A stretch of DNA of 64,000 nucleotides from a virus. The stretch lies in IMG/VR virus record IMGVR_UViG_3300050821_008607, positions 34,184 through 98,183 of that record. One strand, given 5' to 3'. This document shows, in pieces, positions 13,806 through 34,215 of the stretch. The notes under the pieces are model-generated. The model was not told where the DNA came from. It searched no databases and was given only the letters and a program-made list of their open reading frames with translations. How positions within the stretch are numbered: position 1 is the first letter of the stretch; each line of letters starts with the position of its first letter. Position numbers and translations under genes: made by a program.

Positions 13806-16800
13806 TCAGCCCCGACTCCGGTAGCCGCCCTGGGGCAGCATCTTGGTGGCCAGGGAGCGGCCGATGTCGTTGATGAGCCTGTCCATGTCGGCCTTCGAGC
13901 TGAAGTGCGCGCCCTCGAAGTGGTTGTGGACCACCAGGGTCCCGCCCCCGCCGCCCGCGCCACCGCCGTAGGAGAGGCCGGCGCCTGCGCCCGCGAGGGA
14001 CAGGCTGCCCGTCAGGGCCGTCTGCGCGGAACCGGGCAGTGCCCCGGACAGGTTCCGCACCGCGGCGTGGGCAAGGTGGGCATGGTCGTTGACGCCCTTG
14101 GCGATGCCCTCGGGGATGGCCATGCCCACGCCGTCCGCGAAGACCTTGCTGGGGCTGTTGATGCCCAGGGCGCTCATGGCGGACTTGAGGGCGTTCTTGG
14201 CCAGGTCGCCGACGGAGTTGAAGAGCCAGCTCGCCGCACCCTCGATTCCGCTGACGATGCCGTTGACGATGTCGGAGCCGATGGACAGGAACTTGGAGCC
14301 GATGTTGCTGACGGCGTTCCAGGCGGACTGCAGTCCCGAGCCGATCGCGGAGCCGATGTTCCCGACGACGCTGACCACGGCGTGCCAGGCCCCGGTGATC
14401 GGGTTGATGATCGCGGCCTTGATGCCGTTCCAGACCGCTGAGGCGGTGGCCTGGATGCCGCGCCAGATGGCGGCCAGGAACGATTCGATGGCGTGGATGA
14501 TCGGCTGGATTGCCGACCAGGTTGCCTGGATCGGCTGAATGATCGTGACCTTGATGGCGTTCCAGGCGAGGCGCGCTCCGGCCTCGATGACATGCCAGGT
14601 GGCGACGAAGAATCCGGCGACGGCGCCCCAGACTGCCTTCGCCGTGCCGATGATCTGCGTGTGGAAGTGGTTCCAGATCCCGATGACCGCCGCGACAGCC
14701 GGAAGGAAGATCATCAGGAGGAGTGGCCACCACTTGGCGAAGAACCCGGAGATCGCGTTCCACACCGTCGTCGTCACCGAAGCGACCGCGTTCCAGGCCG
14801 CCTCCAGGGCGTGCCAGACTGCCTCCGCCGCACCCACGACCGCACCCCACGCAGCCGCCAGTGCGTGCCCGACCGCCACGGCGGCGGCAGCGATCGCCCG
14901 CCACGCCGCCTCCAGGGCATGCCACATGGCGAAGAACGCGATCCGGACGGCGTCCGCGACGGCGTTGACTACGTCCCGGAAGACCTTGAAGTGGAAGTAG
15001 GCGTAGACCACGCCGGCCACGACGGCGGCGATCGCGATCACGATGAGCTCCGCCGGAGAGAGGATCGCAGCCTCGGCCCCGGCAAAGATCAGCGCAAGGG
15101 CGTTCATGACCCCCTGGACGATCTCCCAGGCCTTCATGGCCAGGACCACGGCGCCGATCGCACCAGCCACGGCAAGCAGTAGGCCGACGATCTTCTGGTT
15201 GTGTGCGATCCACGTCGCCATCGGCACCACGACCTTGGCGATCGCACCGGCTATCGCGGACACCGGCGGCAGCAGGACCGTGCCGAGCGAGATCCCGGCC
15301 GCCTCGATGCTGGCCTTGGCGACGTCGAGTTTCTGGTTGAACGTGCCCTGGATCGCAGCCCAGTTGTCGACGCCCTTGCCGCCCTTGGTGGCGGACTCCT
15401 CGATGGCCTTGGCACCGTTCTTGAAGGTGTCCATCCGGCCACCGGTGATCATCAGCGCGGTGTTGAGGCCCGTCGACCCGCCCATGAGCTTGGACAGGGC
15501 CGCAGTCATGGCCTGCGCCTGCGGGGAGCCCGACTTCAGGAGGTCGTTGAACGAGCTCGACTTCTTGACCAGCGCCTCGAACTGCTGCGCCAGCGCCTTC
15601 TGCGGCAGGCTCAGCCCGGAGAGGTCCTTGTTGTACTGCTTGGCTGTGATCGTTCCGGCCTGCAGGGCCTTGGCCGTGCCCTGAATGCTCGGCGACAGCT
15701 GGCCCATCATGACGTTCAGGTCCGCGGCGGCGACCTTCGAGTCCTTCAGGCTGCTGATGAAGACCTGGCCGCCCTTGGTGTGCGCGGCCAGCGCATTGGT
15801 GACCGTCTCCAGAGTGGCGACCAGGCCCTTGCTGCCCAGCTCCTGGGTCACGCCGTTGACGCTCAGCCCGAGCGCCTGCATCTCGGACCTGGCCGGCCCC
15901 AGCGGATTGGTGAGGTCGCGGATCGTGAACGCGAGATCCTGGGTGGCCTGCTGCGCGGACATGTTCTGCGCGGTCATGGTCGCGAGTGCGCCGCCGACCT
16001 CGGAGAACTTGATGTGAACGGCAGCCGCGAGCGGGGCGACGTTGCCGAGTGACGCAGCGAGGTCCTGCATCTTCATGTCACCCTGGCCGACCGTGGTGAT
16101 CATTTCGTTCATCATCACGTTGGCCTTGTCACCGGACATGCCGTAGGCGTTCATCGTTCCCGTGAGCGCCTTCGACACCGTGTCCAGGTCAGCGCCGCCG
16201 ACCTTCGCACCCTCGGCCGCGACCCGCATCACATCCAGGCCGCCGTTCGCGGCATGGAACCCCGCCGACTCGACGTGGTACATCCCGGCGGCCATCTGGC
16301 TGGTGGTCGTGCCCGTGTCGGCGGCGATCTGCAGCATCCCGGCCCGAATCTTCGCCAGCCCCGACTGCGACTCACCCGCGTCGGTGACCAGGTGCTCGGT
16401 CATCGACTCGAAGTTCCCCGCCGCCTTGATCGCGAGGACGCCGACGGCGGCCACCGCGAGGCCGGCCATGCCCATGCCCTTGGACATGAGGCTGCCGCCC
16501 GCCGCGGCACGTTCTGCCGATGCGCCGGCGCGGGTGGTCGAGGCCGCAGCTGCATCCGTGGCGGCGGCGGACTCGCCCGACGCCGCAGCGGTCGCGCGCT
16601 GCACACTCGCCTGGTGCTCCTGGGCGGCACCGGCTTCCTTCGCCGCGAGCGCGGACTGCTTCTGCGCATCCGTCAGTGCCCTCGACGCGGCAACGAGACG
16701 CTCGGTCGCAGCCGTGTCGCCGTCCTCCGCAGCCGCCGCCTGCGACTGGGCCTCCAGAAGGGCCCGCTCGGCGGTGGCCTGCTGCTCGGCGGTCGACGCC

Positions 16801-17036
16801 ACCCGGGACTGGGCGGCGCTCAGCTTCGCGTCGGCCAGCTCCATCGCGTTGGCGCCCGACGCGGTCTGCAGTAGCGACGCGTCGATCTTCTCCCCGGCCA
16901 CCCCGGCGACCTCAGCCGCCCGGGCCGCAGTGCTCGCGAACTTGTCGAACGACGCGTCGATGCGCTCGGCGGTCCGCGTGGCCCTGTCGACGATCTCGAT
17001 GACGGCCAGGACGGAGAAACCCTCAACGCTGCCCAC
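13806..17036 (-). CDS. tape measure protein (TP901-like)
   Basis: 1076 aa, Ala-rich, W/F-periodic repeats, C-terminal LGINSPSKVF. Confidence 0.95.
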   Translation of the reverse strand: MGSVEGFSVLAVIEIVDRATRTAERIDASFDKFASTAARAAEVAGVAGEKIDASLLQTASGANAMELADAKLSAAQSRVASTAEQQATAERALLEAQSQAAAAEDGDTAATERLVAASRALTDAQKQSALAAKEAGAAQEHQASVQRATAAASGESAAATDAAAASTTRAGASAERAAAGGSLMSKGMGMAGLAVAAVGVLAIKAAGNFESMTEHLVTDAGESQSGLAKIRAGMLQIAADTGTTTSQMAAGMYHVESAGFHAANGGLDVMRVAAEGAKVGGADLDTVSKALTGTMNAYGMSGDKANVMMNEMITTVGQGDMKMQDLAASLGNVAPLAAAVHIKFSEVGGALATMTAQNMSAQQATQDLAFTIRDLTNPLGPARSEMQALGLSVNGVTQELGSKGLVATLETVTNALAAHTKGGQVFISSLKDSKVAAADLNVMMGQLSPSIQGTAKALQAGTITAKQYNKDLSGLSLPQKALAQQFEALVKKSSSFNDLLKSGSPQAQAMTAALSKLMGGSTGLNTALMITGGRMDTFKNGAKAIEESATKGGKGVDNWAAIQGTFNQKLDVAKASIEAAGISLGTVLLPPVSAIAGAIAKVVVPMATWIAHNQKIVGLLLAVAGAIGAVVLAMKAWEIVQGVMNALALIFAGAEAAILSPAELIVIAIAAVVAGVVYAYFHFKVFRDVVNAVADAVRIAFFAMWHALEAAWRAIAAAAVAVGHALAAAWGAVVGAAEAVWHALEAAWNAVASVTTTVWNAISGFFAKWWPLLLMIFLPAVAAVIGIWNHFHTQIIGTAKAVWGAVAGFFVATWHVIEAGARLAWNAIKVTIIQPIQATWSAIQPIIHAIESFLAAIWRGIQATASAVWNGIKAAIINPITGAWHAVVSVVGNIGSAIGSGLQSAWNAVSNIGSKFLSIGSDIVNGIVSGIEGAASWLFNSVGDLAKNALKSAMSALGINSPSKVFADGVGMAIPEGIAKGVNDHAHLAHAAVRNLSGALPGSAQTALTGSLSLAGAGAGLSYGGGAGGGGGTLVVHNHFEGAHFSSKADMDRLINDIGRSLATKMLPQGGYRSRG

Positions 17037-17608
17037 TGTTCGCCCGCCTCTGCTGTTCTTGTTCCTGGCTGGTGATCAGCTGCAGGTAGACGAGGTAGTC
17101 CTCAAGCTCACGGGCAGGCAGCGCTTCGATGTCAGCCTTCGTCATCCCCAGGCGCTGCCAGAACTGCTGCCTCGTCCAGAACGTCGACAGACTCGGCGGC
17201 CCCGGTGCCCCCATCCGGATCGCCGCCGACGCCTCCAGCAGGAAACTGACGCGACTCCGCCTTGGTCCTCGCACCGTTCGACTCGTCGATGAGCTCCCAC
17301 AGCTGGTCGAAGACCACGCCGGGCAGGCGCTTGACGGACTGCAGGTTCAGCGGCCAGATCGGGCCGTCGTCCTCGTCGGCGAGGTTCCAGTCGGCGATGC
17401 TGGCCAGGAGCAGCGTCTGCCGGTACTTGACTGTGTCGGGCTTGACCTCGCGGCCTTTCTCGTTGATGACGACGTTCGCCAGCGCGCGCTCGCCGGCTTC
17501 CTGCTGTCCGTGGGAGAGGTGCTGGCGGATGTCGATCCAGTACTTGCCTTCGGGGTCGCCGACCTCGACGCGGGTGATGCCGGAGTAGGCGGAGAGGAAT
17601 CCGGGCAT
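17023..17608 (-). CDS. tail assembly chaperone (short form 17132-17608; long form by frameshift ends at 17023)
   Basis: between tail tube and TMP; SIADWNL motif; overlapping +1 frame encodes LGMT..DIEALP...Y. Confidence 0.8.
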
Positions 17609-22631: not shown

Positions 22632-24131
22632 TCAGGCGCAGTTCGCCAAAACTGCCATGGCAACGGGGGCCCTGTTGACCAGTGCGGAGACGGTCCGGAT
22701 CTCGAATTCTTTCCTCGGGCCACCACCAGCGGTGTTCGCGACGCGGCTGATGCCGTAGTCGAACTGGGCGGTGTCGCGCAGGGTGCGGCACTCCAGCACG
22801 CTGGAGATGTTGGCCTGCGGGAACGGAACCCTGTCGGTCCTCGCGACGATCGTGCCCGGGGGCAGGGAGACATGGACCTCGATCGGAACGGTCACGCCCC
22901 CCGCCGGGGCGTTGACGATCTCGCCGACCCGGCCACCGGCCGTGGTCGAGATACGGCCCGAGGCGTCGGTGGTGAGGTACGTGGTCGCGGAGTTCGACCC
23001 GAGGACGAGGTTCGCGATCTCCTGCGCCTGCTGGGCGTTCATCATCAGCGCGGTGGGGCTGCACTTGACGGCGTTCCACAGGGGCAGGAACACGTCGTTC
23101 TCGATCTCGTTGACGGTGCCGCCGGTCAGGGTCAGCGCGGCTCCGTCGAGGGAGTTGAAGATCGACGGGTTGGCTGTGCCGGTGCCGGGGGTGCCCCACT
23201 GGCCGGAGCCGTTGTAGTCGCCCGCCAGGGAGGCGAGGAACCCGTCGTAGTCGTTGGCGTTGGCCGACCCGTTGTCCGCCGCGGTGTTGATGGTCGGGAC
23301 CGTGCTGGCGGTGCCCTTCCACGACGTGGACAGGTCCGGAACGCCGTTGCCCGTCGGCAGCGCCTGGTTCGAGGAAATGGTCTTGGTGACCGTCACCGTG
23401 TTGGTGGTGGTGGTCGTGTAGTAGTACCAGGTCGACCCGTTCGCCGAGTAGAACCAGTCGTACGCCACGGCCCCGCGCACGGCGGCGACGGTCGCGGTGA
23501 CGGAGTTCGTGGACCCGGAGCCGAACGTGGACACCAGGCTGCTGGTGCCCTGGGAGTTCCCCGAGCCGTAGTAGTAGCCGGAGCCGGTGCGGGCGGCGAC
23601 GCCGACGTACAGGCTGACCGCACCGATGGTTCCGCCGGTGGCGTGCTGGGTGACGACCGGGGCGGCCGGGGCGGCGAGCGCGAAGCTCTGGGCGCCCATC
23701 AGCTTGCGGTCCTCGCCGATCAGCAGCTGGTTGAGGGTCTGGAACGTGGAGATGGCGTACGGGTCGCCGTAGCCCTTGGCGAGGTCGTAGGCGTCCTGGG
23801 TGACCAGGCCGGCGTAGCCGATGGGCTTGTAGCGGGCCTGGAAGTCCTGCTCCAGGAACTGGACCTCGTTGGCGGCGTAGTCGAAGCCCATGGAGGGATC
23901 CGGCTGCGAGTTGGTGAGGTTCATGATCGCGCGCCACACGGCGTACGGGTTGCCGTCCGGGCTCATCTTGCGGGCGACGATGTCGCGGAACGGGGTGACG
24001 ACGGGGATCAGCGAGACGAGCTCGGAGAGGTCGTAGCTGTAGATCCCGGTGGATTCCAGGATCCCGCTGGTCTGGGCCTTCATGATGGCGCCGAGGGTCT
24101 CCTCGGTCATGTCTGCGAGCGGTGCGCTCAA
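22632..24131 (-). CDS. major capsid protein with inserted beta-sandwich
   Basis: follows scaffold; TTG start after AGGAGG; LIPVVTPFR, YDGFL and VHVSLPPGT motifs. Confidence 0.8.
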   Translation of the reverse strand: MSAPLADMTEETLGAIMKAQTSGILESTGIYSYDLSELVSLIPVVTPFRDIVARKMSPDGNPYAVWRAIMNLTNSQPDPSMGFDYAANEVQFLEQDFQARYKPIGYAGLVTQDAYDLAKGYGDPYAISTFQTLNQLLIGEDRKLMGAQSFALAAPAAPVVTQHATGGTIGAVSLYVGVAARTGSGYYYGSGNSQGTSSLVSTFGSGSTNSVTATVAAVRGAVAYDWFYSANGSTWYYYTTTTTNTVTVTKTISSNQALPTGNGVPDLSTSWKGTASTVPTINTAADNGSANANDYDGFLASLAGDYNGSGQWGTPGTGTANPSIFNSLDGAALTLTGGTVNEIENDVFLPLWNAVKCSPTALMMNAQQAQEIANLVLGSNSATTYLTTDASGRISTTAGGRVGEIVNAPAGGVTVPIEVHVSLPPGTIVARTDRVPFPQANISSVLECRTLRDTAQFDYGISRVANTAGGGPRKEFEIRTVSALVNRAPVAMAVLANCA

Positions 24132-24152
24132 GGGATGCCTCCTGGGCATGCG

Positions 24153-24209: not shown

Positions 24210-26063
24210 CTACTGGCGGGCGCCGCCCTGGTGGATCGCCTGGAGCGCGGCGATGGCGTCGGCCTGCATGTCCTGGGCGATGCGGTTCTGCTCGGTCGCA
24301 TTGGCGGCCTTGTACAGGCGGCCCTTCTGCTCCCGGGCCTTGACCACGTCGACCTGGGCGCCTGCGCCTCGGTCCATGCCGCGCAGGTCGCGCGGCGGGA
24401 CGGCTCCGTTGGTGAAGACACGCGGTTCGGCGGGCTGCTCCTCCAGCGCCCCGATGCGGCCCTTCAGCTCCTTCACGAGGTCCGCCAGCTCCAGGACCGC
24501 GTCCGCCTGCTTGGCGAGGACGGTGTTCTGGCTGGCGCTGTGCTCGGTGAAGGCGCTCTCGACCGCAGCCAGGAGGCTGCTCTTGAACACGTCCGTGAGA
24601 GTGGTGTCGGGGATGGACTTGGTGACTGCCTCGTCGTCCGTGGGGACGGCGTCGGCGGGGGTGCCGGCCTCGGCCGCAGGGGCGGGGGTGAGGTCGGTGG
24701 TCTCGGGGGTAGCCGGGGCGTCGGTGTCGGCGCCGTCCGTGTCGCTGCCGGTGTCGGAGCTGTCGTCGTCGGCGGATGCCCCGGAGACCATGGTGATCTT
24801 CTCGGGGTCGACGATGCCGACGAGCTTGCCGCTGGCGTTGAACACGGCGACCATCTCCGGCTTGTCGCCGTCGGCCTTCGCCACATCGGTGACGACCTGC
24901 CCGGCGACGGGCTTCGGGTCGGCCTGCTGGGCGCCCATGGCGGGCTCCTGGCCGGAGGCCGCAGTGGCGTCGGCGCTGGGGGTGGGCTCGGCCATGTCGG
25001 CCTCCTCGTTCGCGGTCTTGGCGACCGGGGCCCCGGCCTCCTCGGTGGTGGGGGCCTGCGGGAGGGACGCGAGAACCTTCTGCAGGGAGTCGACGGCGCC
25101 GCGGATCGCGGCCTCGTTGCCCGCGGACAGGACGCGCCCGGCCTTGCGGACGTGGCCGAGGGCCTCGATGGTGTCCAGCGAACTCGGATCCCAGTCGGCG
25201 AGGGCCTTGCCGACCATCTGCATGTCGTCGCAGCAGTCGGCCTCGGCCTGCTCGGAGACCGCGAACGGCGCGAGGACGCTGATGGCGTAGTCGAGGGCGC
25301 AGCACGCGTCCTGGAGGTCCCAGGCGTTCTCGGCGTCGCCCTCGTCCCCGGCCGCGGCCTCCATCAGTTCACGGTCGGCGAGCATGTCGACGGCGGCCTT
25401 GGCCCGCGCCAGGATCGACGTCCACTTGCGGGCGGTCGCGGCGTCGACGGCCTCCCAGGCCGGGGAGCCAGGGTCGGTGTCCATGCCGGGGGCGTCGCCG
25501 TCGGGCTCGGCAAGGGCGGTCATCGGGTCCAGGGCGTCGTCGTCCATGCTCGTCTCCTTCGTGACGTCGCCCTTCAGCGAGCCGTCGGCGTTCCAGGTGT
25601 CCGGGATCTCGGACTGGGCGCCGAGGGCCTTGGCTCGTGCGATGACGTGGCGTCGGATCGCGTCATGCTCGGCGCCGCCGCGGCCGACCGCGCGCACTGC
25701 GCGGTTGAGGTCTTCACGGTCGGCGATCGGGTAGCTCTCGTTGGCCATCGCGGCGCCCGACGCGGCCATGCGCTTGAGGTCGTCGGCGTCGTACTTCGCC
25801 TTGAGGACAGCAACCTCGTGGATCATCTTCGCGATCGCGCCCGGGCTGCCGGTCATCGTCACCGTCTCCTCCGGGATTGGCTCAGGATCAGCCTTGGCGA
25901 GCAGCTCGCGGACGAAGCCGGGGTCGAGGAGTCCGGCGCTGTCGTCGTGCTTCATGAGGAGGAAGCCGGGGACGCCGTTCGCGGCTTTTCCGACGAGGTC
26001 GACGCGGGGGATGTTGGCCTCTGTTGCCTCGGTCCAGTCGTCCTCGTCGAGGAGGTCGGTCAT
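24210..26063 (-). CDS. capsid scaffolding protein
   Basis: acidic, low-complexity, C-terminal coiled coil; N-terminal RVDLVGKAAN; YPI..REDL..AVR..GRG domain. Confidence 0.7.
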   Translation of the reverse strand: MTDLLDEDDWTEATEANIPRVDLVGKAANGVPGFLLMKHDDSAGLLDPGFVRELLAKADPEPIPEETVTMTGSPGAIAKMIHEVAVLKAKYDADDLKRMAASGAAMANESYPIADREDLNRAVRAVGRGGAEHDAIRRHVIARAKALGAQSEIPDTWNADGSLKGDVTKETSMDDDALDPMTALAEPDGDAPGMDTDPGSPAWEAVDAATARKWTSILARAKAAVDMLADRELMEAAAGDEGDAENAWDLQDACCALDYAISVLAPFAVSEQAEADCCDDMQMVGKALADWDPSSLDTIEALGHVRKAGRVLSAGNEAAIRGAVDSLQKVLASLPQAPTTEEAGAPVAKTANEEADMAEPTPSADATAASGQEPAMGAQQADPKPVAGQVVTDVAKADGDKPEMVAVFNASGKLVGIVDPEKITMVSGASADDDSSDTGSDTDGADTDAPATPETTDLTPAPAAEAGTPADAVPTDDEAVTKSIPDTTLTDVFKSSLLAAVESAFTEHSASQNTVLAKQADAVLELADLVKELKGRIGALEEQPAEPRVFTNGAVPPRDLRGMDRGAGAQVDVVKAREQKGRLYKAANATEQNRIAQDMQADAIAALQAIHQGGARQ

Positions 26064-26443
26064 GGGTCACTCCTTCGGTGAGGTCGGCGCCGGGCGACGC
26101 CCTGGGGTGAGAAGCCGGTGACCTTGCCGGACTTGACGAGCCGCCAGGCCGTGTCGTCGCAGATCCCGCCGATGAGCCAGTCCCCGGCTTTGATGACCAC
26201 ACCGTTGCCCTGGTCCCAGTCCGGGCCGCGATAGATGTACGACTCGGTGACCTGCATGTGGCCGAGGGTGCCCTCGGCGTGAAACAGCCCGACCTGGGCG
26301 CCCCCGGGCAGATAGCTCCAGCAGGCCTTCTCCAGCTCCTCCGCGGTGAAGAAGTCCCGCGCCCCGTCAGCGCCCTTCGCGATGCGCGGATCCTGGCCGG
26401 CCTGGTATGCCAAACCGAGGACGAACCTGGCCTCTTCGGCCAT
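26060..26443 (-). CDS. XkdF-like prohead serine protease
   Basis: ELEKACW, GLFH, ESYI, GDWLIG and VKSGKVTGFS motifs. Confidence 0.8.
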   Translation of the reverse strand: MAEEARFVLGLAYQAGQDPRIAKGADGARDFFTAEELEKACWSYLPGGAQVGLFHAEGTLGHMQVTESYIYRGPDWDQGNGVVIKAGDWLIGGICDDTAWRLVKSGKVTGFSPQGVARRRPHRRSDP

Positions 26444-26452
26444 GGGCACCCC

Positions 26453-29400
26453 CTATGCGCTCAGGACGGCACACCGACACCGTGGGTGCGCCGGTACGGA
26501 TCGGTCCCCCGAGGGGAATGAGGCGCCGAGCTGGATCGGCCCGGCCCCGGCGTTGGCGATACACCGCGGGCACGTTCGGCTGGACGGGTCCAGGGCCCAG
26601 CGGACTTGGGTGACGCCGAGCTGCTGGTAGCCGAACAGTGCGGCGAGGCCCGACGAGCGGGTGATCTCCGTGATGGCGACGGCCAGTGCCCGGTCGACGC
26701 TGCCCAGGGCACTGCGCAGGGTCCGGCCCAGGGCCAGGGCGGTTGCCCCGGCGATGAGACCCTTGGCCAACTCGCGGGCCAGGTCCCGGCGGCGCGTGTC
26801 GGCAATGCCCTGCGCAGTCTCGGGAACCTGGTCGAGGATCGGCGTCAGGCCCTCGTCGGCGCCCTGGTCGGTGATGGTCCGCTGGGCTCGGGCGGTGTCG
26901 CCGGGTGTCCAGCCGTTGCGCTCTGCCCGGTCGCCGGTGGCTGCGGCGTGGGCGGAGGTGAGGCCGACGAGATAGCCGTCGGTGTACAGCCCCGGCAAGG
27001 TGTCGACGAGCGGGGTGGTGAGGTCCAGGGTCTGGCTTCCGAGCCACGCCTCAGCGGCTGCGGTCAGTTCGCCCTGTTCGGGGCTGCTGGTCTCGTCGAG
27101 CTGGTGCTCGGCGAGGAACCGGCCGGCGACGTCCTGGGCTGCCGCGGCGGTGAGGACGCCACCGAGTGCCGCGGCGATCACTGCGGCCCAGTGGTTGGCG
27201 GCGTCCTCGTCGGTATCCCAGCCAGGCCACTGGTCGGCAGCCCCCTGGCCAGGGGCTTCACCTTTTCCCGCGCCGACCTTCTCCAGCACCTCGACGCCGA
27301 GGGCGGTGAGGACCTGGTCGAGGTCGGCAAGCAGCTCGGGGCGCACGGCCGGGTTCCCGGCCAGTTGCCCGGGGTGCATCCAGGCGATCGCTTCGATGCA
27401 GTCGCCGTCCGGGTCGTCCGGGTTGGTGACATCCCGGTCGCCGCGAACCGGCACCATGGCCTCGGAGTCGACCGTCCAGACGATGCCCTGGTAGACGCCG
27501 TCCGGACTGACCCATGTGCCGCTCTGGACGCCCGGGGGCGGGATGGACCCGGTCTCCTCCGACCATTCACGCCACGCGCCCATGAGCGGCGACTCGGCCC
27601 CTTCGAGGTGACCGCCGGGGAACTCGAAGGTTCCACCTGCGGGGTCCTCGGGGTCGAGGCAGCGCTGCAGCATCAGGACGCGGCCAGTGTCAGCAGCGCG
27701 CACTGCGAGGCCAGCGACACTGACCTCACCTGCTGCCTTGCGGACGGCGAGCCGGGCGCTCTGGTTGAGGCGCCGTCCGCGGATCGGGTCGATGGCGCGG
27801 AACTCGAAGGGCTCCCACTGGCCGGTGCGGCGCCGCTTCTTGGTGAACGACCGGAACGCGGCCAGCTCGCTCTTGGCCAGCTGCTCCCGGTCCTCCTGGT
27901 CGTCGTTCTCGTCGTCGTGCTGCCCCACGAGGTCGTAGGAGGTGATGCCCGTGGCGGTCGTGATCCCCGCCGTGGGGGCGCCGTCCTTCGCAACCTCGGT
28001 CGCGGGGGCTTCGGCGACGGGCTGCGGGGGTGGGGCGGTGGGCATCGCGTCGAGGCCGTAGATCTGCTCCGCGAGCGGGACGCCCTTCGCCGGCGGTTCC
28101 GGGGTGATGCCTTCCGCGCCGGTGAACACCGAATGTGGCAGCGGCGCGCCGGGTTCGGGGGCGCCGGTCTGGGTGTCGATCTCTCCCGCCACCGAGTACA
28201 GCGACGACAGTGGCACTGGGCCGGCGTGGGAGGTGAAGATGAATCGGGGCACCGGCTGGCCGTTCGGCTCCTGGAGGCCGTAGCGGCTCTCCCGGATCTC
28301 GGACGCGCCGACGACACCGAGTTCGATGTAGATCTTGTCTGCCTGGGCCTGCTGCAGCCGGTCGGCCTGCTCCTCGCCGAGGTCGAAGGCGAAGTCGAGC
28401 GGCAGGCCGAGATCGTCCTGGAGGAACGCGGACAGGATCGTCTGGACGTGGCGCAGCAGCGGCAGGTCGCCGACGCGGTGCTGGACGTCGGCCTGCGACT
28501 CACCGCTGCTCTTGTTGACGGACTCGGTGAATCCGAGGTCGGCCGGTACGACGTGGAATGCCGCCGCGGTCTTCCGCATCAGGAACAGGCTGAAATGATC
28601 CTGGAAGTCTTTCTCGTTGGACCATTCGATCTTGCCGCCGCCGGGCATCCACTTGATCTGGGCCTTGGCGGCCTGGTCGCCCAGCATCCAGGCGTCCCAG
28701 TAGGTCTGGAATGCCTCGATCTGGTCGGGGGTCCAGGTCTCGGGTGCGGACGCGAACGCGGAGGGGATGTTGCCCTCGGTGAAGCGCTGCAGGAAGTACG
28801 CCTGGAACCTGAGGTCGGTGTTGGCGTTGAGGAGGATCGTCTCCAGCGGCGCCAGCCCGTAGGGGCTGTTGGCGCGCTTGCGGAACGGCTGGTAGATCAG
28901 GTCGTCGCGGGTCAGCTGGTCCCACGGCAGGCCGTTGACGTACTGCACGAACGCCGGGGCCGGCGTCTCGGGGCTGTTGCCCCAGTAGTCGAGCAGTGGC
29001 GCGATCATGGTGCCGTCTACGACGCGCAGGCCGATGGCGTCACCGCGGCGGTTCCGGAGCCGGTACAGGGTTCCGGCGTCGTAGGCGAGGGTGTCGTACA
29101 GGAACGAGCCGAGCCAGGCGCTGAAGGACTGCTGGCCGTCGGGCTTGGCGAGGGCTTTCATGCCGATCTGGATGGCGTCGGCGAGGTCGCCGCCGTTCCC
29201 GTCCTTGGCGACCAGGGACCAGTCGAGGGAGCGGATCGAGTCGATGCGGTGCCAGATGCACATCTGGGCGACGTCGTAGGACTCGATCAGGCCGCGCAGG
29301 GTGTCGAAGCTGACGCGCTCGTAGGTCCGCGGCCTGGTGGCCACGTTGTAGTTGGTGACGTAGTTCTCGGTGCGCGGGGTGCGCGAGTACCCGTCGTAGG

Positions 29401-29524
29401 GCCCGAGTGGTGTGCCGGGGCTGAACGGCGACGCCGGGGTCATCTGGGATGCTGCCTGGCCTGCCGCGATGGCTGCGGGCACGTTCGTTCCGTAGGTCTT
29501 GACCAGGCGGCGGGGGTCGGGCAC
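26453..29524 (-). CDS. portal protein fused to NUDIX hydrolase and MuF-like minor head domain
   Basis: portal motifs (YGLAPLE, FHVVPADLG); Nudix box GGHLEGAESPLMGAWREWSEETG; C-terminal TEITR...CPRC...PAHPRCRC. Confidence 0.9.
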   Translation of the reverse strand: MPDPRRLVKTYGTNVPAAIAAGQAASQMTPASPFSPGTPLGPYDGYSRTPRTENYVTNYNVATRPRTYERVSFDTLRGLIESYDVAQMCIWHRIDSIRSLDWSLVAKDGNGGDLADAIQIGMKALAKPDGQQSFSAWLGSFLYDTLAYDAGTLYRLRNRRGDAIGLRVVDGTMIAPLLDYWGNSPETPAPAFVQYVNGLPWDQLTRDDLIYQPFRKRANSPYGLAPLETILLNANTDLRFQAYFLQRFTEGNIPSAFASAPETWTPDQIEAFQTYWDAWMLGDQAAKAQIKWMPGGGKIEWSNEKDFQDHFSLFLMRKTAAAFHVVPADLGFTESVNKSSGESQADVQHRVGDLPLLRHVQTILSAFLQDDLGLPLDFAFDLGEEQADRLQQAQADKIYIELGVVGASEIRESRYGLQEPNGQPVPRFIFTSHAGPVPLSSLYSVAGEIDTQTGAPEPGAPLPHSVFTGAEGITPEPPAKGVPLAEQIYGLDAMPTAPPPQPVAEAPATEVAKDGAPTAGITTATGITSYDLVGQHDDENDDQEDREQLAKSELAAFRSFTKKRRRTGQWEPFEFRAIDPIRGRRLNQSARLAVRKAAGEVSVAGLAVRAADTGRVLMLQRCLDPEDPAGGTFEFPGGHLEGAESPLMGAWREWSEETGSIPPPGVQSGTWVSPDGVYQGIVWTVDSEAMVPVRGDRDVTNPDDPDGDCIEAIAWMHPGQLAGNPAVRPELLADLDQVLTALGVEVLEKVGAGKGEAPGQGAADQWPGWDTDEDAANHWAAVIAAALGGVLTAAAAQDVAGRFLAEHQLDETSSPEQGELTAAAEAWLGSQTLDLTTPLVDTLPGLYTDGYLVGLTSAHAAATGDRAERNGWTPGDTARAQRTITDQGADEGLTPILDQVPETAQGIADTRRRDLARELAKGLIAGATALALGRTLRSALGSVDRALAVAITEITRSSGLAALFGYQQLGVTQVRWALDPSSRTCPRCIANAGAGPIQLGASFPSGDRSVPAHPRCRCAVLSA

Positions 29525-29538
29525 CGGGACCCCCTTGT

Positions 29539-30966
29539 TCAGCGTTGGGCGCGGTAGGCGGCGTTGCGGGCCCGCTGGCGGGCGGCGGCCGGATCCTCTT
29601 GCTGCTCGGGGGCAGGCGGCGGCGCGGCAGTCGGTGCCAGGTCGGGAAGTTCCGCGTCAGCTCCGCCTTGCGTCGCGGCCTCGGCCTGACGGCGCATGTA
29701 GCTGATCCAGCTCTGGGCGCTGAAGTCGTCGGTCAGCTCGGTCACCGCCCACACGAGAGCGTCGAGCCGGTCGGGGCTGGTGCCGTCCTGTGGCGTCCAC
29801 GTCGTCATCTGGTCTTCGAGCTTCGGCATCGCACCGACGTGATGGACCCGGTGCTGCTCGTAGAGAGCGGCGACGGGCTCGGCGCGCTGGACCTTGCCCC
29901 GGGATGCGCTGATGACCTTGACGGGAACGTTCTTGTCGACCTGGCGGATCGTGGACTCGACCATGGCGCCGCCGTAGTTCACCTCGGCAACGATCCGGTC
30001 CGCGGAGAACTCCCGGTAGGCGCCGACGGCCCGGGATGCCCAGCCGTGTGGCGACAGGGAGCAGGAGCGGTCCGCGAGGATGTACAGCTCGCCGTCCACG
30101 CCGAGGCCGGCGACGACGATGCCCTGCTCGTCATTGTTGGGCCCGGACCCGCCGGAGGGGTCGACGGCGACGACGATGCGCTGCATCTCCGGCGGGTTGG
30201 TGATGCGGTCTTGGTCGAGGCCGGCGATGTTCCACAGGGCGCCTTCGACGTCGTCGAGGAGTTCGCCAAGGAGTTCCTGGCGGCCGATGCGGGTGCCCTC
30301 GTAGGTGGCGAGGACCTGCGCCCGGAAGCTGGGGGCGAGGTTGCCGAGGTTGTCGTAGGTCGAGCCGCGGGTGACTGCTGTCGACGGCCGGGCGAGGATG
30401 ACCCGGGTCAGGGCGTTGGGCTTCGGCGTGGTGGTGACCACGCACCGGGGCGTCTCGCCAAGCCGTAGGCCCAGCATGAGGTTGTTCCAGGCCGTGTCGA
30501 GGATGTCGCCCTTGGGGGCGTCGGTCCACGCTGCGGCCTCGTCGGCCCAGGCCCAGTGGTGCTGGGGCCCGCGGAGCTGGGAGGGGACCTCGGCGGAGAA
30601 CGCTGTGGCGATGGACCCGTTCGGCCAGGTCAGGCGTCGCTTCGTGGGCTCGTAGATGGGCGTGAAGTCTTTGGCCGAGCAGGCGATGATGCCGGACTCG
30701 CCTTCGATCATGACGTCGCGGACATCGGCCGGGGTGCGGCCGATCAGCGCCCCGCGGGATCCGGGCATGTCGCGGGCCTGCTCGATGGAGAATTCGGCTG
30801 CTGACCGTGTCTTGCCTGCGCCGCGTCCGGCGATGAAGGCCCAGACGAGCCAGTCGTCGCCCGCGGGCGGCAGTTGCTCGGGGCGGGCGATCTTCCGCCA
30901 TGTCGGGGGCCGGGCGATCTCGAAGTCCCGGGCCGCATATTCGAGCCAGTCGGCGGTGGCGGTCAC
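29539..30966 (-). CDS. terminase large subunit
   Basis: AGRGAGKT, LRGPQH, WADEAAAW, VAVDP and DRLDALVWA motifs. Confidence 0.95.
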   Translation of the reverse strand: MTATADWLEYAARDFEIARPPTWRKIARPEQLPPAGDDWLVWAFIAGRGAGKTRSAAEFSIEQARDMPGSRGALIGRTPADVRDVMIEGESGIIACSAKDFTPIYEPTKRRLTWPNGSIATAFSAEVPSQLRGPQHHWAWADEAAAWTDAPKGDILDTAWNNLMLGLRLGETPRCVVTTTPKPNALTRVILARPSTAVTRGSTYDNLGNLAPSFRAQVLATYEGTRIGRQELLGELLDDVEGALWNIAGLDQDRITNPPEMQRIVVAVDPSGGSGPNNDEQGIVVAGLGVDGELYILADRSCSLSPHGWASRAVGAYREFSADRIVAEVNYGGAMVESTIRQVDKNVPVKVISASRGKVQRAEPVAALYEQHRVHHVGAMPKLEDQMTTWTPQDGTSPDRLDALVWAVTELTDDFSAQSWISYMRRQAEAATQGGADAELPDLAPTAAPPPAPEQQEDPAAARQRARNAAYRAQR

Positions 30967-33814: not shown

Positions 33815-34215
33815 TCGCCGCCCTCGGAGAGGATGCTGCGGAGCAGGGAGTCCGGCACAGAATCGGTCTCCTCGCGCGTCCAGCCGAACCGCGTCCAGGC
33901 TGCGTTGTAGAGCGCGGCCTTCGGGGTGTCGGCCGTCGTGCAAGTGATGTACGGCGCCGTCGGATAGACCGGCATGGTCGGGTACATCGGCGTGTACGGC
34001 ATTGTCGGAGGCGTGATCGGGGCGGGCGGGGTCCCACCGGGGCCGAGGTCGGCACAGGGCACGATGTCCCACAGGCCGCTGCTCAGCGCAGGCCACGTCT
34101 CCAGCACCTTGAGCGTGGCCTTGGCCTGCTCTTCGGTGTCGTAGGGGCCGAAAGCCTGCCGGACGCCGGACCGGTCGGACTCGGACAGGACTACAACGAA
34201 GCGGGTGATCATCAC
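33811..34215 (-). CDS. hypothetical protein
   Basis: FGPYDTEEQA motif, Pro-rich linker, coupled. Confidence 0.6.
   Translation of the reverse strand: MMITRFVVVLSESDRSGVRQAFGPYDTEEQAKATLKVLETWPALSSGLWDIVPCADLGPGGTPPAPITPPTMPYTPMYPTMPVYPTAPYITCTTADTPKAALYNAAWTRFGWTREETDSVPDSLLRSILSEGGE

Follow-up and report, generated by a model that had tools for sequence, protein, structure and literature searches.

A conserved signal for a putative dnaX-like -1 frameshift ahead of the MuF module of phage portal-NUDIX-MuF fusion genes

Why should a phage gene that reads without interruption through a portal domain, a NUDIX domain and a MuF module carry, just before the last of these, a sequence on which ribosomes could leave the frame and stop? 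The question is raised by a fusion gene on the minus strand (26453-29524; 1023 aa and 109.8 kDa, from the open reading frame (ORF) and its translation) of a 64,000-nucleotide stretch of DNA from a soil phage, here called the window, that corresponds to positions 34,184 to 98,183 of the IMG/VR virus record IMGVR_UViG_3300050821_008607 (98,183 bases, with direct terminal repeats, rated complete). The answer favoured here, drawn from sequence comparison with its relatives, is that a conserved programmed -1 frameshift, of the kind known from the E. coli gene dnaX, very probably divides the output of this gene between a 755-aa portal-NUDIX protein and the 1023-aa fusion.

The slippery heptamer G_GGA_AAA lies in frame at 27263-27269 (minus strand), where GGA forms codon 753 and AAA codon 754. 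Both codons are rare in this gene, AAA accounting for 3 of 21 lysine codons and GGA for 8 of 97 glycine codons. Read in the -1 frame, the site becomes GGG AAA AGG TGA, adding a single residue (R) before the stop at 27258-27260 (minus strand). Five nucleotides after the heptamer (spacer GGUGA), a hairpin of 7 bp with a 5-nt loop and a stability of -12.2 kcal/mol (27239-27257, minus strand) belongs to the minimum-free-energy fold. An earlier note, made from the letters of this DNA alone, had described the in-phase heptamer, its rare codons, the 5-nt spacer with its hairpin and the immediate -1 stop, and all of these are present as it described them. The predicted products are a protein of 755 aa (82.3 kDa, ending ...GAGKR) by way of the -1 frame and the fusion of 1023 aa (109.8 kDa) by way of the 0 frame. 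A possible Shine-Dalgarno (SD)-like stimulator, GGAGAAGG (27277-27284, minus strand), places AAGG 7 nt ahead of the heptamer. The gene holds one further in-frame heptamer of the form X_XXY_YYZ, CCCGGGC at codon 664, which has a 90-codon -1 extension; heptamers of this type are common background in these GC-rich genes. Two other routes to a second product were set aside: internal initiation of MuF, as the GTG within GGTGAA sits in the +1 frame, and transcriptional slippage, as the run of A comprises only four bases.

Within the window, neither element beats chance. The word GGGAAAA occurs once in the 64 kb, with 1.54 occurrences expected and at least one in 78 of 100 shuffles, and the hairpin region has z = -1.15, 26 of 200 shuffles folding equally well or better. 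By themselves, then, heptamer and hairpin are within chance, which would suit the alternative that the motif is inert and the 1023-aa fusion the sole product. The significance of the slip signal derives instead from comparison with relatives.

DNA for 192 loci was taken from genomes, IMG/VR, metagenomes and a phage collection, and 88 loci reach the linker region after removal of duplicates. The largest class (type A, 53 loci), to which the window gene belongs, has MuF in the 0 frame and exactly one in-frame C_CCA_AAA (44 loci) or G_GGA_AAA (9 loci) just ahead of the MuF module, followed by a -1 stop 1-20 codons on (median 4). Its members include the cultured Arthrobacter phages Sonali and Mufasa8, at ~45% identity to the window protein, and prophages of Streptomyces, Kitasatospora and Streptacidiphilus; heptamer-bearing relatives also come from Jatrophihabitantaceae prophages and IMG/VR contigs. 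Six loci (type B) have MuF in the -1 frame after C_CCA_AAA: L031, L042 (on a contig shared with L008), L050, L104, L131 and L134. Seven carry MuF and no heptamer (L003, L006, L009, L010, L012, L027 and L076), and 17 have neither a detected MuF nor a heptamer, these being mostly fragments at a contig end, with L032, L043 and L185 as examples that are complete. Four have the heptamer and an unclear C-terminus (contig ends or an interrupted C-terminus), and one, L067, is odd. None of the 88 loci has MuF in the +1 frame. Of the 66 non-redundant loci that bear MuF, 59 thus have the heptamer, placed at a corresponding point of the linker.

The distribution follows one domain in particular. In two IMG/VR contigs (L051 and L060), portal-MuF fusions that lack NUDIX have C_CCA_AAA at the portal/MuF junction (codon 600), and the -1 frame closes 2 codons later. 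In L032 and L043, which are full-length but have no MuF, the heptamer is absent. Kept where NUDIX is missing and absent where MuF is missing, the slip site therefore goes with MuF.

How far could the heptamer simply reflect the amino acids that it encodes? All statistics given here treat related sequences as independent. In 49 non-redundant genes, AAA makes up 8.7% of lysine codons, CCA 4.5% of proline codons and GGA 7.7% of glycine codons; the slip site is always CCA-AAA or GGA-AAA with the matching base before it. Apart from the slip site, no XXXAAAR heptamer lies in frame anywhere in the 48,557 codons of these genes, and the 75 background heptamers that they contain are nearly all GC-only, such as CCCGGGC. 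Furthermore, the seven MuF loci without the heptamer likewise lack the Pro-Lys dipeptide. As loss of the one accompanies loss of the other, the residues follow the heptamer and not the reverse. Judged from these sequences, conservation of the heptamer at the nucleotide level exceeds what the protein needs.

The frame that the protein does not use is constrained as well. Starting from random in-frame positions of these genes, the median distance to the next -1 stop is 71 codons, and 12% of such stops come in the first 11 codons; at none of the 53 type A loci is the stop more than 20 codons away. This type A stop is almost without exception TGA, which arises where a codon ending in T (GGT, GCT, CCT or GAT) precedes GAN, and such T-ending codons make up 45.5% of those before GAN within 12 codons past the heptamer vs 6.0% elsewhere (odds ratio 13). 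The pattern argues that the outcome in the alternative frame is under selection.

The hairpin has a comparable record. The best single hairpin beginning 3-9 nt past the heptamer has a median of -12.4 kcal/mol at 39 loci vs -6.2 kcal/mol at 371 control positions in the same genes (Mann-Whitney p = 4e-9), and one of -10 or better is found at 67% of sites vs 18% of controls. In a gapless subgroup of 15 sequences, 88.9% of cells pair, falling to ~50% once the partner is slid, and three pairs have changed on both sides (e.g. C-G to U-A); the covariation score was attained by none of 500 shuffles. Other subgroups have a different stem sequence and still form a hairpin. Upstream, AAGG stands 7, 10 or 13 nt ahead of the heptamer in 45 of 57 loci, being absent from the Arthrobacter phages, and predicted anti-SD pairing with the 16S 3' end (-22 to -3) has a median of -8.0 vs -4.4 kcal/mol at control positions. 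Because its bases also encode a conserved Lys-Ala, this element counts as suggestive only of an SD-like stimulator in a dnaX-like arrangement. That heptamer and hairpin are a coincidence, as the figures for the window allowed, is extremely improbable once the relatives are considered: 59 non-redundant relatives share the heptamer and its place in the linker although its codons are rare, the 48,557 codons surveyed hold no other of its kind, and the -1 stop and the hairpin are enriched too.

Further evidence for slipping comes from type B. In these loci the 0 frame ends 4-23 codons past C_CCA_AAA, whereas the -1 frame runs on without a stop for 259-504 codons, and conserved MuF N-terminal motifs (WPGW...HWAP or WRD...PQH.FDL) appear in it within 4-8 codons of the heptamer. 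Supporting this assignment, Pfam Phage_Mu_F scores above its cut-off in four of the five type B -1 ORFs tested. Four loci (L042, L050, L131 and L134) have a -1 stop lying 2-6 codons ahead of the heptamer, and from that stop to +90 nt their -1 frame offers neither ATG nor GTG nor TTG; the conserved start of MuF would therefore be translatable there only after a slip. The five type B entries on a FastTree portal-domain tree require five separate changes (its branch supports are only of the SH-like kind, and the branch to L131 is long); type B thus appears to have arisen at least five times.

Could type B instead represent sequencing or assembly errors, pseudogenes, or a MuF gene that starts separately? 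The loci are metagenomic contigs, and GTG codons do occur far upstream in the -1 frame of L031 and L104. One relative outside type B, the metagenome contig QGNH01000540.1 (L067:4211-4600), has the heptamer with a 6-codon -1 extension, yet its 0 frame ends 52 codons on and MuF resumes in the -1 frame; this second frame break, ~55 codons from the slip site, is probably an error or decay. Random errors, however, would strike anywhere in a 3-kb gene and into either frame, whereas all six type B breaks fall a few codons past the heptamer, every one to -1 and none to +1. Together with their spread over at least five separate branches and the four loci without a start codon between the upstream stop and +90 nt, this leaves an artefactual or separately initiated MuF hardly credible. 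The central proposal of the earlier note, a programmed -1 frameshift at the NUDIX/MuF boundary, is accordingly supported by the conserved heptamer, hairpin and -1 stop and by the type B relatives. Conservation in homologues, which the note had named as a way to check it, bears it out at each element: the heptamer in 59 of 66 MuF loci, the hairpin enriched and covarying, the -1 stop built from rare T-ending codons.

Where the site falls in the protein fits a shortened product and also invites another explanation. An AlphaFold model supplied with 40 homologues gives pLDDT <50 at residues 745-763, spanning slip codons 753-754, with ~75-85 at residues 600-744 (NUDIX) and ~90 at residues 767-1023 (the MuF module); the portal part is modelled poorly as a monomer. 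The linker around the slip site is also the part of the alignment with most length variation. With the slip codons in a disordered linker between domains, a slip would let the short product finish neatly at the edge of a domain. A disordered interdomain linker is equally where a Pro/Gly-Lys pair with rare codons might serve as a prohead protease cleavage site, or as a folding pause, with no change of frame. Lys754 is at least 90% conserved, and a gene for a small head maturation protease comes after the portal gene. A cleavage motif, however, needs neither CCA and AAA codons nor a preceding C or G, neither a -1 TGA built from rare T-ending codons nor a hairpin. It leaves unexplained the six loci in which MuF stands in the -1 frame, four of them lacking a start codon for it, and it is at odds with the paired loss of heptamer and Pro-Lys, in which the residues follow the heptamer. 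Cleavage or pausing as the whole explanation is thus highly improbable, although cleavage could occur in addition to frameshifting.

If frameshifting is accepted for type B, its place in type A has still to be weighed, since there the fusion needs no slip and the site might be a relic, at which slipping is rare and the truncated product has no role. Seven MuF loci do manage without the heptamer. Type A is nevertheless by far the commoner arrangement (53 loci) and preserves the heptamer down to ~45% protein identity, and its retention of the hairpin and of an early -1 stop made with rare codons points to selection on the short product. A relic is on these grounds very improbable, and a functional slip in type A, the window gene included, is the reading pursued below.

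The three domains were assigned with Pfam and PHROG. The portal domain (residues 86-412; 28289-29269, minus strand) matches Pfam Phage_portal (PF04860) with E = 5.4e-16 and 59.1 bits, above the curated cut-off of 39.1, and the PHROG portal family phrog_2662 matches the fusion protein at 2.4e-66. The NUDIX domain (residues 607-728; 27341-27706, minus strand) matches PF00293 with 48.6 bits and E = 1e-12, above the cut-off, and PHROGs agree on it. Its translation contains a complete NUDIX box, G-x5-E-x7-R-E-W-x-E-E-x-G, and therefore the portal-borne hydrolase is probably active. For the MuF module (residues 766-1023, with a Pfam core at 915-1020; 26456-27229, minus strand), which a -1 slip would omit, the Phage_Mu_F (PF04233) match of the window protein itself, at 27.9 bits, is just below the cut-off of 29.6; minor head protein/head morphogenesis PHROGs match this part at 1e-11, PF04233 is precomputed for many close homologues, and related C-terminal modules score 32-44 bits. 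Hundreds of full-length homologues have the identical set of portal, NUDIX and MuF.

The surroundings are those of a head gene cluster. The large terminase gene (29539-30966) lies directly upstream of the fusion gene, and the small head maturation protease gene (26060-26449) follows it, succeeded by capsid and tail genes. Between the protease gene and a capsid-like gene (22632-24149, phrog_13692) lies a 617-aa gene (24210-26063, minus strand) that has no PHROG match and is, by position, a possible scaffold. No tRNA genes that might tune slipping are present in the 64-kb window.

Several relatives carry additional material. Many Streptomyces prophage homologues (L009-L013, L044, L046 and L048) have a Cys-rich insert of ~80-110 residues between NUDIX and the slip site, with the zinc-ribbon-like pattern CPCC...CxxC...CPCG, which is absent from the window protein. 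Intein splicing or LAGLIDADG domains occur in or after the MuF part at L101:4370-6340 and L047:5206-7617 and in the proteins P0075, P0101, P0092 and P0106, and protein P0115 has an ADP-ribosyltransferase exotoxin domain (PF03496). L042 and L050 extend ~230 residues beyond MuF, without a Pfam match.

How would the signal work? Ribosomes on the portal-NUDIX-MuF mRNA would meet G_GGA_AAA in the disordered linker past NUDIX, where the GC-rich hairpin 5 nt downstream, and perhaps the SD-like AAGG upstream, would slow them. With either heptamer, G_GGA_AAA or C_CCA_AAA, the tRNA in the P site would regain two or three of its base pairs, and tRNA-Lys would find a perfect match again on AAA. In high-GC bacteria AAG has a tRNA-Lys of its own, which would make AAA the better slip codon. 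A fraction of ribosomes would slip back by one base, tRNA-Gly exchanging GGA for GGG and tRNA-Lys one AAA for another, then read AGG and terminate at TGA, giving the 755-aa portal-NUDIX protein; the remainder would continue to the 1023-aa fusion. Short and long subunits might then co-assemble in the 12-subunit portal ring, only some of them carrying MuF inside the head. The sequences show the signal, its conservation at the nucleotide level, selection on the -1 stop and relatives that need the slip to reach MuF; that this phage slips, makes both proteins and builds mixed portal rings is what I infer beyond them.

A close counterpart is the dnaX gene of E. coli, in which an A_AAA_AAG heptamer is accompanied by a hairpin downstream and an SD-like element upstream and is followed by a near-immediate -1 stop. 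As in dnaX, the slip proposed for the window gene is to -1 on a heptamer that ends in a lysine codon and gives a short product without the C-terminal domains, and both genes have a downstream hairpin and possibly an SD-like element at a similar distance upstream. They differ in the heptamer (A_AAA_AAG vs G_GGA_AAA or C_CCA_AAA) and in the setting, here a phage portal fusion of high-GC Actinomycetota in which the SD-like element is inseparable from conserved residues. The tau and gamma products of the dnaX programmed -1 frameshift are reviewed in PMC5009743.

Among phage structural genes, the familiar case is the tail assembly chaperone G/GT, with a -1 frameshift in lambda and most long-tailed phages (Xu, Hendrix, Duda 2004, as cited in PMC7302621), for which a G_GGA_AAG heptamer is on record (PMC5009743). 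It shares with the proposed portal site a conserved slip to -1, at a heptamer of the GGGAAA type within a gene for a phage structural protein, by which the ratio of a short to a long protein is set. Type B has exactly the G/GT topology, in which the 0 frame is short and the -1 frame long, whereas the window gene has it inverted, in that the slip would shorten the protein; moreover, G/GT acts in the tail, and the present gene at the portal vertex and head interior. Capsid proteins are frameshifted in T7/T3 (gene 10A/10B) and in Lactobacillus phage A2 (major head protein; PMC5009743). These resemble the proposal for the portal in that a -1 slip in one gene yields two forms of a head protein, both in the particle, but in those cases it is the major capsid protein that receives an extra, decorating domain, whereas here a portal subunit would gain or lose an internal cargo-targeting domain. 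Finally, gp7 of SPP1, a member of the MuF family, reaches the procapsid via the portal protein gp6 in few copies (PMC6316719). Entry of MuF through the portal in few copies matches what is proposed here, with the difference that the gp6-gp7 link is non-covalent and the present one a covalent fusion.

Several points nevertheless weigh against this reading, in addition to the chance-level figures for the window. The evidence in every member is at the level of sequence and not of protein. As related sequences are counted as independent, the p-values are too small, although the direction of each enrichment effect is clear despite this. The heptamer is not obligatory, seven MuF-bearing loci being without it, and its last base (Z) is A, whereas G is the base studied in E. 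coli. In type A the fusion is the default, and MuF as the minority form would need an unusually high slip efficiency. Furthermore, types A and B would give opposite ratios at equal efficiency; free flips between the two topologies therefore imply either that the efficiency lies near one half, as in dnaX, or that the ratio is loosely constrained. Nor does the tail chaperone provide a -1 positive control in the same genome. The candidate (17132-17608) has no in-frame X_XXY_YYZ heptamer, and the short ORF that bridges it and the tape measure gene (13806-17036) at 17023-17277 (minus strand) is in the +1 (or -2) frame, not -1. In Sonali and Mufasa8, a tail chaperone frameshift is likewise not annotated.

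What, then, is new? Fusions of portal and MuF are already on record for Microbacterium phages and for Arthrobacter phage Sonali, and 'portal and MuF-like fusion proteins' are annotated in actinobacteriophages with frameshifting unmentioned (PMC7302621); gene 3 of Sonali and gene 3 of Mufasa8 each bear the annotation of a plain single gene. In the PRFect paper, MuF comes up solely for its fusion with VIP2 toxins, and the word 'portal' is absent from the accessible portion of the text of the 2016 recoding review (PMC5009743). In the literature searched, nothing relevant was found on a portal or MuF frameshift or on CCCAAAA in phages. The mechanism is canonical, and it is the gene and its role that are new.

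A wider view can be put forward only tentatively, being somewhat more apt to fail than to hold: using a frameshift to dose the cargo carried on the portal may be a principle of phage assembly in general, in which the slip rate would set the MuF-bearing fraction of the 12 subunits, together with the cargo of MuF (NUDIX, inteins and toxin domains), and lineages would flip between a slip that removes MuF and one that adds it. If frameshifting at this site is real, annotating such loci as a plain gene, or as a truncated portal and an orphan MuF ORF, overlooks a product. C_CCA_AAA and G_GGA_AAA would be natural slip sites for high-GC Actinomycetota, and Sonali and Mufasa8 would be cultured phages open to direct test. 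The slip site would also offer a genetic handle on portal-ring composition and on how cargo inside the head, for example NUDIX enzymes or MuF-linked toxins, is delivered. For the phages themselves, the consequence would be that those with a covalent portal-MuF fusion could escape loading twelve bulky MuF modules at one vertex.

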